Part shown: positions 2,691 to 61,844 of the stretch, piece after piece
Layout: each line of letters starts with the position of its first letter
Numbering within the stretch: the stretch's first letter is position 1
Virus record (IMG/VR): IMGVR_UViG_3300045988_010208
Reading direction: 5' to 3' (one strand)
Source: a virus
Taxonomy: Duplodnaviria > Heunggongvirae > Uroviricota > Caudoviricetes
Length of the DNA: 64,000 bases
Position numbers and translations under genes: made by a program
The notes under the pieces: generated by a model
Databases searched by the model: none
What the model was told of the DNA's origin: nothing
The model's input: the letters and a program-made list of their open reading frames with translations, nothing else

Positions 2691-2703
2691 ACTTGACAAG
2701 GTG
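2691..2703 (+). promoter_or_regulatory. Conserved 13-mer ACTTGACAAGGTG (copy 1 of 3), promoter-associated
   Basis: Exact 13-mer also at 45505 and 61832, each at the start of a plus-strand transcription unit; contains TTGACA. Confidence 0.5.
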
Positions 2704-2830
2704 TAGGCTTATAAATACTTAGAAGATAACTTAAAAGGTTCCTCTAAAAAGGCTATTTAAACAGATATCTTTCTGGATATCTATCTTTTATCTTAAAAGC
2801 CTTTTAAGAGGTCTTATAAGAGGCATACCA

Positions 2831-3202
2831 ATGAAAAACAGAACAAACAAAGGCCAGTTTAAAAAAGGCCAGTCTGGAAACCCATCTGGAAGACCAAAAG
2901 GCTCTCGTAACAAAAGTTCACTCGTAAAAGCTCAACTAACCATTGATAATTCTGCTGAGTTTGCTGCAAAGTTGTTTGAGGCGATTGTTACAAGGGACGC
3001 TGCTAAGCTTGCAGAGTTCGGGTTAAACACAGATGACGTAACCATCAAGAGCATGATTGAGGTCGGTAAAACCATCTTTACTCACTCAGCAGGTGAGATG
3101 AAAGCACTTGCAGCAGACACTAAGAAGACCTCTGATAACGGTGGTCAGTCTCAGACAGATAACAAACCAACGTTCTCTGCTGTAGCGACTCTCAAAAAAT
3201 AA
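2831..3202 (+). CDS. Hypothetical protein with GNPSGRPKG motif
   Basis: 123-aa ORF with AGG-rich upstream region; lysine-rich N-terminus, motif seen in uncharacterised phage protein families. Confidence 0.5.
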   Translation: MKNRTNKGQFKKGQSGNPSGRPKGSRNKSSLVKAQLTIDNSAEFAAKLFEAIVTRDAAKLAEFGLNTDDVTIKSMIEVGKTIFTHSAGEMKALAADTKKTSDNGGQSQTDNKPTFSAVATLKK

Positions 3203-3214
3203 TTTTAAAAGGTG

Positions 3215-3244
3215 TTGACAGGCTCTACAAAGTTGCTCTAAAGT
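3215..3244 (+). promoter_or_regulatory. Sigma70-like promoter (TTGACA, 18-nt spacer, TAAAGT)
   Basis: TTGACA at 3215-3220 and TAAAGT at 3239-3244, upstream of the 3283 CDS; flanked by inverted repeat TGACAG/CTGTCA. Confidence 0.45.
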
Positions 3245-3282
3245 CTGTCACATCAAACAACAATGAGAGAAGAGAGTAAAAT

Positions 3283-59091: not shown

Positions 59092-59110
59092 AGCATGTAA
59101 AGGGGCAATA

Positions 59111-61255
59111 ATGAACAAAGTACAGATTATTAAAAAGAATGGCTCACTCGAAGAACCTGATATCAAAAAAGTTTTAGCAGCAGTCACAAAGTCAGCTAAT
59201 AGGGTTGGGTATAAAGAACTCCCACCAGATGTTACCCAAGCTCTTGAGTCAGCATTTATGAGGATTCTGGTAAAATCCACTAAGCAGAATAATTTGCTAA
59301 TTTCTGTAAATGATATTCACAGTATTGTTGAGGGTGCTTTGGCAGAAGTCAATCACGAGATTTATGAATCTTACTCAACATATAGAAATTACCGTAAAGA
59401 AGTTGCTCAAAATTGGGATGAACTCTACCAGAAGACCAGAGATACACTCTTCTTAGGTGACAGAGAGAATGCTAACTTTGACAGCAGTTTAATTTCTACA
59501 AAAGGTTCAATTATTCGTGGTTACCTGACTAAAGAAATCTTTAAACAGTACCATTTAACACCAGAGGAACTTGAAGCCATTGAAAAAGGGTTTATCTATA
59601 TCCATGATTTAAGAGACCTAATTTTTGGTGGTATCAACTGTTGCCTGTTTGACATTGGTAAAGTACTGAAAGGTGGCTTTGAAATGTCTGGCATTGAATA
59701 TTGTGAACCAAAGTCTGTGCTATCAGCCTTACAGGTTATTGGTGATGTAGTTCTTTCAGCAACTGCACAGCAATTTGGTGGCTTTACTTTAGCAGAGATT
59801 GATAAGGTACTTGTACCGTATGCTAAGAAGTCTCTACATTACCATGCTGAAAAAGCAGCGTCTTACGGTATTCCTAAAGAACATTACCACAATTATGTCA
59901 TGGAGCAGCTACAGATTGAATTAACTCAAGGTTTTCAGTCTCTTGAAATGAAGCTCAATACTGTACCTTGCAGCCGTGGGGATTTTGCATTCACAACTTT
60001 GACATTCGGGTTACTTGACTCAGATATGTCCAATGAAGATAACCGACTGCAATACATGATTGCAAGTACTCTCCTAGATGTTCGTATGAATGGACAAGGT
60101 AAGAGCAAGAAGCCTGTTGTATTCCCTAAACTGGTTTATATTTATGACCAGAAGAGACACGATGAGAATATCTGTCAAGGCCACCTGTACAGTAAAGCTA
60201 TTGAGTGTTGCTCTAAAGCAATGTATCCAGATTTCTTAAGTGTATCTGGTCATGGTGCTGTAGCAGAGGCTTTTGAGCGTTCTGGCAAGGTAATTTCACC
60301 GATGGGTTGCCGAGCGTTCTTATCACCATATCTTAACGATAATGGGGAAGAGTTCTATGTTGGTCGTGCTAACATTGGTGCTGTATCTTTGAACTTACCA
60401 ATGATTTACCAGTATTCTAAAGAGAATGGCTTAGATTTCTGGAAAGAGCTTGATAAGTACCTAGAAATGATTCGCAGCTTCCACAAGAAACGTTACGAAA
60501 TGATTGCTAATATGCCAGCAAGTTCTAACCCTCTTGCATTCACACAAGGTGGTCTGTATAAAGGAACTAAGAAGCCTACTGACAGGGTTGGTTGGGATAT
60601 TGTGAAGTCTTTCACAGCTTCTTTTGGGGTTACTGCGCTTGATGAGCTGTCTGTTCTTGCTGAAGGTAAACGACTTCATGAAGTTGGAAGCTGTAGTTTT
60701 GCATACGATGTGCTGGAATATATCAACATGAAGACTGAAGAGTTTAAAAATGAAGATGGCTTCTTATATGCAGTCTATGGCACTCCAGCAGAATCACTTT
60801 GTGGAACTCAGCTAAAACAGTTCAGAGATATGTTTGGAGTTATCAAGGGTGTTTCTGATAAGGAATACTTTACAAACAGTTTCCATATGAATGTTGCAGC
60901 AGACATCTCACCATTTGAGAAGCAGGACTTAGAAGAGCCATTCTTCCATATCTGTAGAGGCGGCAGAATCCAGTATGTAAGAGTAGCTAACCCAGAAAAC
61001 TTAACAGCACTTAAAAGTTGTATTACAAGAGGGATGTTGAAAGGTTTCTATCAGGGACTTAACTTTGACTTAGCAATCTGTGAACATTGTGGTAACAGAC
61101 CAAAGGCTGATGTTGAAGAATGTGAGGTTTGTCATTCACACGATATCTCTGTGATTAACAGGGTGTGCGGGTACTTGTCATTCACAAAAATTAAAGGTCA
61201 GTCTCGAATGAATGACGCTAAGATGGCAGAAATTAAGGATAGGGTTTCTATGTAA
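59111..61255 (+). CDS. nrdD: Anaerobic ribonucleoside-triphosphate reductase (class III)
   Basis: 714 aa; N-terminal ATP-cone, C-terminal zinc ribbon CEHCG ... CEVCHS and glycyl-radical motif RVCGYLS. Confidence 0.85.
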   Translation: MNKVQIIKKNGSLEEPDIKKVLAAVTKSANRVGYKELPPDVTQALESAFMRILVKSTKQNNLLISVNDIHSIVEGALAEVNHEIYESYSTYRNYRKEVAQNWDELYQKTRDTLFLGDRENANFDSSLISTKGSIIRGYLTKEIFKQYHLTPEELEAIEKGFIYIHDLRDLIFGGINCCLFDIGKVLKGGFEMSGIEYCEPKSVLSALQVIGDVVLSATAQQFGGFTLAEIDKVLVPYAKKSLHYHAEKAASYGIPKEHYHNYVMEQLQIELTQGFQSLEMKLNTVPCSRGDFAFTTLTFGLLDSDMSNEDNRLQYMIASTLLDVRMNGQGKSKKPVVFPKLVYIYDQKRHDENICQGHLYSKAIECCSKAMYPDFLSVSGHGAVAEAFERSGKVISPMGCRAFLSPYLNDNGEEFYVGRANIGAVSLNLPMIYQYSKENGLDFWKELDKYLEMIRSFHKKRYEMIANMPASSNPLAFTQGGLYKGTKKPTDRVGWDIVKSFTASFGVTALDELSVLAEGKRLHEVGSCSFAYDVLEYINMKTEEFKNEDGFLYAVYGTPAESLCGTQLKQFRDMFGVIKGVSDKEYFTNSFHMNVAADISPFEKQDLEEPFFHICRGGRIQYVRVANPENLTALKSCITRGMLKGFYQGLNFDLAICEHCGNRPKADVEECEVCHSHDISVINRVCGYLSFTKIKGQSRMNDAKMAEIKDRVSM

Positions 61256-61262
61256 CATCGAA

Positions 61263-61820
61263 ATGAATTACGAACTAATATATAATGCAATTATTAAGAA
61301 GGCACATTCTGAAAGGGGTGTGCCTCTTACATACTACAAATGTCAAGGTAAGGGGTATGAAAGACACCATATCGTACCAGTATGTCTAGGTGGCGATAAA
61401 ATTAGTGGAGATAATATTGCTTTACTTACACCTAGAGAACACTATATAGCTCATAAATTACTGGTTAAGATGTATCCAAACAATCATAAGTTATGGTTTG
61501 CATGGAACAGGTTAGCTCATGATGGTTTAGATAGGAAAATATCATCCAGAGACTATGAAAAGGTAAGGGCTTTAAACTCGAAAGCTTTATCTATTGTGAA
61601 TAAAGGCAGGGTTTTCACTGAAGAGCATCGAAGACGATTAGGAGAATCCCAAATAGGCAATACAAAGTCAAAAGGTTGTAAAAGGTCTATAGAAACAAGG
61701 AAGAAGATGTCAGAAGCCGGAAAAAAGCCAAAGAAAAAGAAAACTTGCCCTCATTGTGGCATGACTGGTGGTGCTGGTAACATGACTCGATATCATTTTG
61801 ACAATTGTAAGAAAAAATAA
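61263..61820 (+). CDS. HNH endonuclease inserted between nrdD and nrdG
   Basis: HNH motif ERHHIVPVCLGGDKISGDNIALLTPREHYIAH; start at ATG 61263 (track frame begins 61212 inside nrdD). Confidence 0.65.
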   Translation: MNYELIYNAIIKKAHSERGVPLTYYKCQGKGYERHHIVPVCLGGDKISGDNIALLTPREHYIAHKLLVKMYPNNHKLWFAWNRLAHDGLDRKISSRDYEKVRALNSKALSIVNKGRVFTEEHRRRLGESQIGNTKSKGCKRSIETRKKMSEAGKKPKKKKTCPHCGMTGGAGNMTRYHFDNCKKK

Positions 61821-61831
61821 CCTTATGTAAA

Positions 61832-61844
61832 ACTTGACAAGGTG
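61832..61844 (+). promoter_or_regulatory. Conserved 13-mer ACTTGACAAGGTG (copy 3 of 3)
   Basis: Immediately downstream of the HNH gene, upstream of 61985 gene. Confidence 0.5.

Follow-up and report, generated by a model that had tools for sequence, protein, structure and literature searches.

Three identical copies of the 13-mer ACTTGACAAGGTG in IMG/VR virus record IMGVR_UViG_3300045988_010208 (analysed over its whole 64,000-nucleotide stretch, hereafter the window) probably represent the -35 hexamer TTGACA together with the flanks of host sigma-70-type promoters, and no separate regulatory word. We consider it similarly probable that copies 1 to 3 and a near-copy at 42216 on the minus strand, 42216(-), are all host sigma-70-type promoters, and that copy 3 and 42216(-) belong to a cassette resembling the PeSL elements of T4-like phages, which join a promoter to a stem-loop. 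At copies 1 and 2 a second TTGACA (box 1) was found 12 bp upstream of the TTGACA of the 13-mer (box 2), so that box 2 falls within the spacer of the promoter that box 1 would begin. More tentatively, a second TTGACAA placed in the spacer 10-13 bp past the -35 hexamer may constitute an undescribed promoter sub-architecture that has been selected in at least two unrelated phage lineages. The lineages that would share it are, with the same reserve, the Felix O1-like coliphages and environmental T4-like phages, in the latter beside the gene for the late sigma factor gp55.

Anatomy of the probable promoters at copies 1 and 2

A tested 3 kb of the window was 98.5% identical to Escherichia phage JohannRWettstein and 261 phage records were matched, which places the window among the Felix O1-like myoviruses (Ounavirinae, Felixounavirus). 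The 13-mer is a real, non-random repeat: the count over the window gave exactly three copies, all on the plus strand (2691-2703, 45505-45517 and 61832-61844), against 0.01 expected, and none of 100 dinucleotide-preserving shuffles gave three, which bears out the three identical copies reported in the original prediction. All three are intergenic and oriented toward downstream genes. Three one-mismatch copies were also found, one intergenic at 42216(-) and two within coding sequence (34635 on the plus strand and 44733 on the minus strand). The first of these, at 42216-42228, reads AGTTGACAAGGTG, and the 11-mer core TTGACAAGGTG occurs four times in the window, each time in an intergenic position and aimed at the downstream gene. 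The exact word is variable within the family, with ACTTGACAAGGTA at Felix O1 site 1, the exact word at Felix O1 site 2 and ACTTGACAAGATG at site 3 of JohannRWettstein, and divergent relatives retain only TTGACAA plus, mostly, the final TG.

Copies 1 and 2 each stand ahead of the first plus-strand gene after a strand switch. Copy 1 lies in a divergent gap (region 1) between a minus-strand unit with lysis genes and a plus-strand unit of two open reading frames (ORFs), a tRNA array and structural genes, and copy 2 lies in a divergent gap (region 2) between the DNA polymerase unit on the minus strand and a replication and nucleotide-metabolism unit on the plus strand. The features of the two regions are as follows.

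2691-2703, plus strand: copy 1 of the 13-mer, holding box 2 (TTGACA, 2693-2698), inside the P1 spacer of intergenic region 1
2668-2709, plus strand: candidate promoter P1 of intergenic region 1, proposed from sequence and relatives
2627-2655, minus strand: candidate divergent promoter, back to back with P1, for the minus-strand unit (TTGACT-N17-TACCAT), invariant across the relatives examined
45505-45517, plus strand: copy 2 of the 13-mer, holding box 2 (TTGACA, 45507-45512), its last TG being the extended -10 of the region 2 candidate P1
45473-45524, plus strand: candidate promoter P1 of intergenic region 2, proposed from sequence, relatives and the annotation of ASO1A
2729-2740 and 45542-45553, plus strand: copies of ACTTAAAAGGTT in the early leaders of regions 1 and 2, part of a shared module

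In region 1, an A-tract (GTTAAAAAAGTTG, 2668-2680) touches box 1 (2681-2686), and a 17-nt spacer leads to the -10 hexamer TAGGCT (2704-2709), with a predicted start at about 2716 ahead of genes at 2831-3202 (DUF5681) and 3283-4698. The candidate in region 2 is built in the same order, from an A-rich stretch at 45473-45494 with the A-tract AAAAAATTATAAAAAGCAAG, box 1 (45495-45500) and an 18-nt spacer to TGt and TAATCT (45516-45524), with a predicted start at about 45531 ahead of 45692-46114 and of the unit for replication and nucleotide metabolism. The two regions can be aligned over a module of about 90 bp that comprises the A-tract, the two boxes, about 23 variable nt, ACTTAAAAGGTT and a terminal ...ACAGATA. 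RNA folds at copies 1 and 2 were no better than those of shuffles (z = 0.28 and -0.53).

The layout of box 1 at copies 1 and 2 is that of the clear consensus promoters of this phage, in which an A/T-rich stretch touches TTGACA (3215, 4717, 4808, 6268 and 50318). Within the non-coding DNA, which makes up 7.8% of the window, TTGACA is overrepresented (13 sites versus 5.4 expected) and the most enriched words, TTTTAAAA, TTAAAAGG and TAAAAGGT, are the A/T-rich flank of -35 boxes; no further word enriched in this non-coding DNA could mark a separate regulator or a phage-specific promoter. An Rfam scan of the window returned tRNAs only. A perfect TTGACA is present at all four sites and is doubled at copies 1 and 2, TAnnnT follows at 16-18 nt from box 1 of copies 1 and 2 as well as at copy 3 and 42216(-), and conservation in relatives falls on the -35 hexamer, on positions 1, 2 and 6 of the -10 hexamer and on the spacing between them. 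The sites are thereby like the sigma-70 promoters with an UP-element-like A-tract and an extended -10 that serve early genes of lytic coliphages, with the same TTGACA, 17-18-nt spacer and TAnnnT, with TGn at two sites, and with the same A/T-rich upstream stretch, intergenic place and orientation with downstream genes; they differ from these in their weak -10 elements and, at copies 1 and 2, in the conserved second TTGACAA in the spacer.

The original proposal that the word is promoter-associated and that its TTGACA is a -35-type hexamer therefore finds support in layout and in conservation among relatives. Its further statement that no -10 hexamer follows at 16-18 nt holds at copies 1 and 2, where the TTGACA inside the 13-mer has only TACTTA or GAAGTG at that distance, but fails at copy 3, where TGaTAGGCT lies at 18 nt, and box 1 upstream had been missed. 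The copy 1 locus is that of Felix O1 promoter P41, which begins at box 1 and was published as TTGACA(N15)TATAGG (Whichard et al. 2010, PMC3185647); the paper is without the second box, whereas the relatives compared here favour N17-TAnnnT over N15-TATAGG. For the gap between Felix O1 genes 96 and 97, which corresponds to the copy 2 region, no promoter was reported (PMC3185647).

Conservation and recurrence of the tandem boxes

Both gaps were gathered from IMG/VR contigs via their flanking genes and from GenBank genera via the polymerase gene. Among relatives at 77-83% protein identity, both TTGACA boxes of region 1 are invariant and the six bases between them vary freely (AAGTAC, TTCCTC, AGGGGA, AGCCTC, AATGAC). 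The hexamer 17 nt past box 1 varies at its inner positions only (TAGGCT, TAGCCT, TAGTGT, TAAGTT), which is the signature expected of a -10 element. Region 2 of divergent relatives has, at 18 nt, either TGtTAATCT or TGgTAGTCT; an independent promoter annotation on box 1 of this region stands in the GenBank record of ASO1A. At the polymerase-side locus, phiEa21-4 and phi63_307 have TTGACA-N17-TACATT, annotated as a promoter by the phiEa21-4 depositors, Wc4-1 has TTGACA-N17-TAGGCT and Zyzzx has TTGACA-gaac-TTGACAAGGGGtt-TATTGT. As judged from these loci, what stays constant across genera is box 1 together with the TAnnnT that follows it. Felixounavirus, Zyzzx and the more divergent IMG/VR relatives have box 2 as well, and Kolesnikvirus and Wc4-1 do not have it at the polymerase-side locus; its offset from box 1 within Felix-type phages is 10, 12 or 13 bp. 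A third tandem promoter can be read in JohannRWettstein at 69459-69500, beyond the window, as AAAAAACTTTTAAAAAAGTG-TTGACA-ATACCCC-TTGACA-TTGG-TAACTT, with an offset of 13 bp and a weak -10.

We scanned IMG/VR for TTGACA-N6-TTGACAAGGTG and found two matches in each Felix-like contig, corresponding to regions 1 and 2. The scan also matched T4-like contigs of about 31% GC with homologues of UvsW, gp55, gp47 and gp46, and the remaining matches, outside Felix-like and T4-like contigs, were set aside as coding coincidences encoding xDKxxDKV peptides. In tblastx comparisons of the T4-like contigs with the window phage no homology was found, and no protein common to both was detected among the fragments compared. 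One T4-like contig has 36 nt identical to region 1, and among cultured phages the sole DNA match of the T4-like element is a 35-nt stretch in region 1 of Felix-like phages.

As a guard against ascertainment bias, 80 gp55-gene loci were collected independently of the motif. An invariant TTGACA was found at 57 of these 80 loci, on the strand directed away from gp55, with N17 in nearly all cases, good -10 elements (TATAGT, TAAAGT, TATAAT and others) and an A-rich stretch upstream. A second TTGAC lies in the spacer of 38 of the 51 unique promoters, against about 1% by chance, at offsets of 11 (22 cases), 12 (14 cases) and 13 bp (2 cases), and promoters that have box 2 show a slightly weaker -10 element (p = 0.016, without correction for phylogeny). 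This recurrence argues that box 1 is the working -35 element in the tandem layout and that the spacer box is selected rather than accidental, and the second box is, on this comparison, probably functional. No description of the second-box spacer arrangement, or of its recurrence across phage families, was found in the literature searched.

The strongly conserved, near-consensus sigma-70-type promoter at these T4-like loci is back to back with gp55, about 25 nt from the gp55 ATG (L165-L244, with the gp55 start at 451; L112, 9052-9097). The predicted promoter, mostly with tandem TTGACA boxes, is directed, in antisense, into the 3' end of the ORF that precedes gp55 on the same strand, and it may provide antisense or interference control of gp55 timing or act as a promoter-type origin.

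Two further observations concern the divergent regions of the window phage. The leaders (2710-2830 and 45525-45691) are 110-160 nt long, very AT-rich and near invariant at 77-83% protein identity; they hold palindromes (AGATATC-N6-GATATCT at about 2764-2783, CTTAAAAG-C-CTTTTAAG and AGCTTTTAAAAAGCT), and the words AACAG and CTTTAAAG recur in them and persist in other Ounavirinae genera. On the minus-strand side of region 2, annotations usually begin the DNA polymerase ORF with the ATG at 45464. Its true start is probably 45431, since the ATG at that position (MENVDF...) is served by a good ribosome-binding site (AGAGGGAG) and alignments to homologues in other genera begin only at about residue 6-19.

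The hairpin cassette at copy 3 and 42216(-)

PeSLs are defined by a sigma-70-like promoter, an AT-rich upstream stretch with a stop codon and a stem-loop between or overlapping the promoter boxes; plastic loci, nrdD among them, have PeSLs nearby (Arbiol et al. 2010, PMC2839356; Comeau et al. 2014, PMC4122927). Copy 3 lies 3' of nrdD (59111-61255) and of a homing-endonuclease ORF that follows it, and 42216(-) lies directly 3' of another endonuclease ORF. The features of these two sites are as follows.

61832-61844, plus strand: copy 3 of the 13-mer, with a single -35 TTGACA (61834-61839) and AAGGTG beginning the 5' arm of a hairpin
61834-61863, plus strand: candidate promoter of copy 3 (TTGACA, N18, TGa and TAGGCT at 61855-61863)
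61839-61884, plus strand: predicted intrinsic terminator downstream of nrdD and the homing endonuclease ORF (a hairpin of 16 pairs at 61839-61874, with TTTTATT behind it)
61212-61820, plus strand: homing endonuclease ORF (NUMOD3, phrog_655) between nrdD and copy 3, missing from most relatives
42198-42228, minus strand: candidate promoter and hairpin of the fourth near-copy (AGTTGACAAGGTG at 42216-42228; TTGACA 42221-42226, N17, TACCTT 42198-42203)
42223-42738, minus strand: HNH and AP2 endonuclease ORF upstream of 42216(-)

The copy 3 hairpin folds at -22.9 kcal/mol (z = -5.2 versus shuffles) and has the character of an intrinsic terminator, with a T-run after the stem and pairing kept among relatives. 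Two stem positions switch between G.U and A-U in relatives with pairing retained, the exceptions being a mismatch at the stem base in one lineage and one A.C mismatch in JohannRWettstein. The TGaTAGGCT lies on the 3' side of the loop and the predicted start, at about 61870, falls within the 3' arm of the hairpin. At 42216(-), a 9-pair stem (AAGGTGCTC/GAGTACCTT) occupies 42198-42221, and the 71-nt fold has z = -2.0.

Both sites have the stem-loop of a PeSL between or overlapping the -35 and -10 boxes, which copies 1 and 2 do not have. At copy 3 the upstream stop stands in TATGTAA, directly followed by AACTTGACA, and an ATG comes further on at 61884; at 42216(-), a TGA stop overlaps the box, and GGAGGG and then an ATG follow about 25 nt past the -10. 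The likeness thus comprises the AT-rich stop, the -35, a stem-loop spanning the spacer and reaching over the -10, and a position beside plastic loci (nrdD and homing endonucleases). The differences are that the genome here is Ounavirinae/Felixounavirus (Felix O1-like) and not that of a T4-like myovirus, that the stems are AAGGTG.../...CACCTT rather than G-run/C-run, and that copies 1 and 2 are without a stem-loop. By analogy, the copy 3 and 42216(-) cassettes would resemble PeSLs in how they work without being members of that group, as PeSLs are defined as T4-like and recombining and the cassettes here are known from sequence alone. Related cassettes (ACTTTACAAGGGGCTTA...TAAGCCCC; TTGACAAGGGGCTTCAAAGCCCCTTAGAAT) repeat between small early genes of JohannRWettstein, and cassettes like ACTTTACAAGGGGCTTA...TAAGCCCC were recorded as direct repeats in Felix O1 (PMC3185647).

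The copies had been described as heading the first plus-strand gene after a strand switch or an inserted endonuclease gene, which is correct for copies 1 and 2 and also in that an endonuclease ORF precedes copy 3. The copy 3 element, however, directly follows the nrdD stop in relatives with or without the endonuclease ORF, and since relatives without the ORF have it at the same place, it is not tied to the insertion. The endonuclease ORF sits at the nrdD 3' end in the window phage and in a few relatives (among the loci compared, L056-L075), and this ORF and the nrdD of relatives without it end alike, with ...TATGTAA right before the cassette.

Proposed mechanism, rival explanations and meaning

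What the analysis shows is how the sites are built and conserved, the hairpin and the recurring layout; that polymerase initiates at the sites, and what box 2 does there, we infer. At copies 1 and 2, box 1 and the A-tract would recruit host polymerase and the weak -10 would set the start near 2716 and 45531, aided by TGn in region 2, with the 13-mer filling the spacer and bringing in the second TTGACAA. At copy 3 and 42216(-), the hairpin would stop upstream transcription and the embedded promoter would restart it; a copy 3 transcript starting about 7 nt past the -10 would be without the 5' arm, so that the terminator could not form in it. Our best guess is that box 2 offers sigma region 4 a second docking register, by which it would raise or tune polymerase occupancy at promoters with weak -10 elements, the alternatives being an operator or a transcriptional-interference device. 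For the sub-architecture in general, possible roles are a docking register of this kind that tunes occupancy or escape, or a strong polymerase 'parking site' against opposing transcription into the DNA polymerase or gp55 genes. The promoters of region 2 and gp55 face transcription that crosses them toward the polymerase or gp55 gene, and the region 1 promoter does not. A common action via the host housekeeping holoenzyme is proposed, with the same tentativeness as the sub-architecture itself, because the holoenzyme is the one factor that both systems are known to share.

Several points weigh against reading these sites as host sigma-70-type promoters of the usual kind. Promoter spacers are normally free of sequence constraint, and textbook function therefore leaves the conservation of box 2 unexplained; the standard sigma-70 model does not predict it. 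That box 2 is missing from Kolesnikvirus and Wc4-1 further implies that it is dispensable for the promoter itself. All four -10 hexamers match the consensus at only 3/6 positions, and in region 1 the TG touches the -10 (-14/-13) and does not have the canonical -15/-14 placement. In end-point reverse transcription PCR (RT-PCR) of Felix O1, genes 41, 42 and 96-99 fall in the 25-minute and not the 5-minute class, a weak sign that the promoters are regulated rather than simple immediate-early. Initiation is placed here by inference, as no start-site, binding or RNA-sequencing study of a Felix O1-like phage was found in the literature.

The site for a phage regulator that had first been suggested gained no positive evidence as such, and it is kept in the form of an operator overlapping the promoter at box 2. 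In this form, a phage or host protein would bind the TTGACAAGGTG core within the spacer at copies 1 and 2 and switch both divergent regions, which we regard as unlikely. Such an operator would fit the conservation of box 2 inside a spacer whose neighbouring bases drift, the 4-1-4 quasi-palindrome CTTGACAAG read from the sequence, the weak -10 elements, the peak of the downstream genes at 25 minutes in RT-PCR and the further extent of the module of about 90 bp common to both regions, but the site matches the sigma-70 -35 consensus exactly, lies at a variable 10-13 bp from box 1 and is missing from some genera that keep the promoter. The occurrence of box 2 in unrelated T4-like phages would moreover call for the same regulator in different phage-host systems, and no candidate regulator was identified. 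An explanation by cassette exchange concerns the identity of the copies and is compatible with sigma-70-type promoters at these sites. Promoter cassettes that share descent or undergo gene conversion are the probable source of the 13-nt identity among sites, because divergent relatives retain no more than TTGACAA and, mostly, TG, and the AC and GG flanks vary. That the exact identity arises by recombination or descent of duplicating, gene-converting promoter or promoter-terminator cassettes, as proposed for PeSLs, is in its full form a possibility that we hold with reserve: no recombination junctions were observed and copies 1 and 2 are without the stem-loop, even though ACTTGACAAGGTG and TAGGCTTA are common to copies 1 and 3, which a 13-nt insert sets apart, homing-endonuclease genes adjoin two of the four sites, the ACTTTACAAGGGGCTTA...TAAGCCCC cassettes are repeated in the closest genome and among the direct repeats listed for Felix O1, and experiments with RB49 and phi1 have demonstrated recombination of PeSLs.

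T4 middle promoters carry a MotA box, (a/t)(a/t)(a/t)TGCTT(t/c)A, with its centre near -30 and 11-13 bp from the -10, and have no consensus -35. The analogy with MotA-box promoters drawn in the original prediction does not hold, since sequence and spacing differ and a consensus -35 is present here. The sites here are alike only in having a box upstream of a TAnnnT -10, that box being TTGACAAGG where a Mot box has TGCTT (as quoted in PMC4122927), and every feature of MotA promoters that could be looked for was absent. The nearest TAnnnT is 5 nt from the word at copies 1 and 2 and 17-18 nt from it at copy 3 and 42216, rather than at one fixed distance. We therefore consider it highly improbable that the motif marks a phage-specific promoter class for a remodelled host polymerase, comparable to the T4 middle promoters used via MotA/AsiA. 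Such a class should have many members and there are only 3-4 copies per genome, and beyond the A/T-rich flank no other non-coding word stands out. In its favour would be that the hexamer within the 13-mer has no -10 at 16-18 nt at copies 1 and 2, that a -10-like TATAAA lies 11 nt past box 2 in region 1 and that the temporal regulation of Felix O1 is unexplained; the TATAAA geometry is missing in region 2, however, where a minus-strand TATAAT is not conserved. In Felix O1, neither MotA nor AsiA genes were reported, neither a phage RNA polymerase nor polymerase-modifying proteins were apparent and temporal control was called unknown (PMC3185647). As remote, in our estimate, is the idea that the divergent regions are promoter-type replication origins, with a promoter and a very AT-rich unwinding stretch as in T4 oriF/oriG or the T7 primary origin and the tandem boxes as part of the origin. 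The place of region 2 between the DNA polymerase and primase/helicase units and the long, AT-rich and highly conserved leaders of both regions would suit an origin. Against this, GC skew merely tracks gene orientation, neither copy 3 nor the 42216 site stands in a comparable context, and the iteron-like repeats of the window lie elsewhere, at 37.9-39.6 kb.

These repeats form a non-coding block (37867-38207 and 39381-39602) with five copies of a unit of about 86-125 nt at a spacing of 122-128 nt, including two 222-nt super-units that are 77% identical, and the block has no Rfam match. On the minus (gene) strand, each unit consists of the A/T-rich TTTTAAAAGGNCTTTAAAGAGGGTCTTTTAATAAGG followed by about ten GGTNN pentamers (GGTCA GGTCA GGTCA GGTGA GGTAA ...). 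The block could represent iteron-like origin repeats or an RNA with Shine-Dalgarno-like AGGU repeats.

A number of other assignments were tried and rejected. Box 2 as the -35 of a second promoter has no TAnnnT 16-18 nt further on in either region, in the relatives or in the T4-like set. A -10 placed 10-11 nt after the box would be TATAAA in region 1 and a minus-strand TATAAT in region 2, the latter not conserved among relatives, and for TATGGT beside gp55 as an analogous -10, the second position varies and the GGT is Shine-Dalgarno-like. The T4 late-type sequence TATAAATA at 2710 is one of only 4 copies versus 3.5 expected and is not enriched. In a comparison by eye, the consensus sequences of sigma-32, sigma-E and sigma-54 promoters do not fit, and neither does the E. 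coli Pho box, whose TGTCA repeats have a strict 11-bp period where the Felix-type period is 12 bp.

Taken as host sigma-70-type promoters, these sites are mostly ordinary, namely host-type promoters and a promoter-terminator cassette located in a well-sampled phage family, and part of this is already known, as P41 is published and the box 1 promoter of region 2 is annotated in at least one GenBank record. The 2010 promoter list of Felix O1 is corrected or extended, in particular in that the polymerase-side divergent region has a recognisable promoter. The point for specialists is the duplicate -35 box in the spacer, conserved from one genus to another and seen again in unrelated T4-like phages. 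Should box 2 have a defined role in kinetics or regulation, it would add a simple new element to the design of promoters, natural as well as synthetic, and it might help to explain gene timing in Felix O1-type phages, which have no known polymerase-modifying factors.

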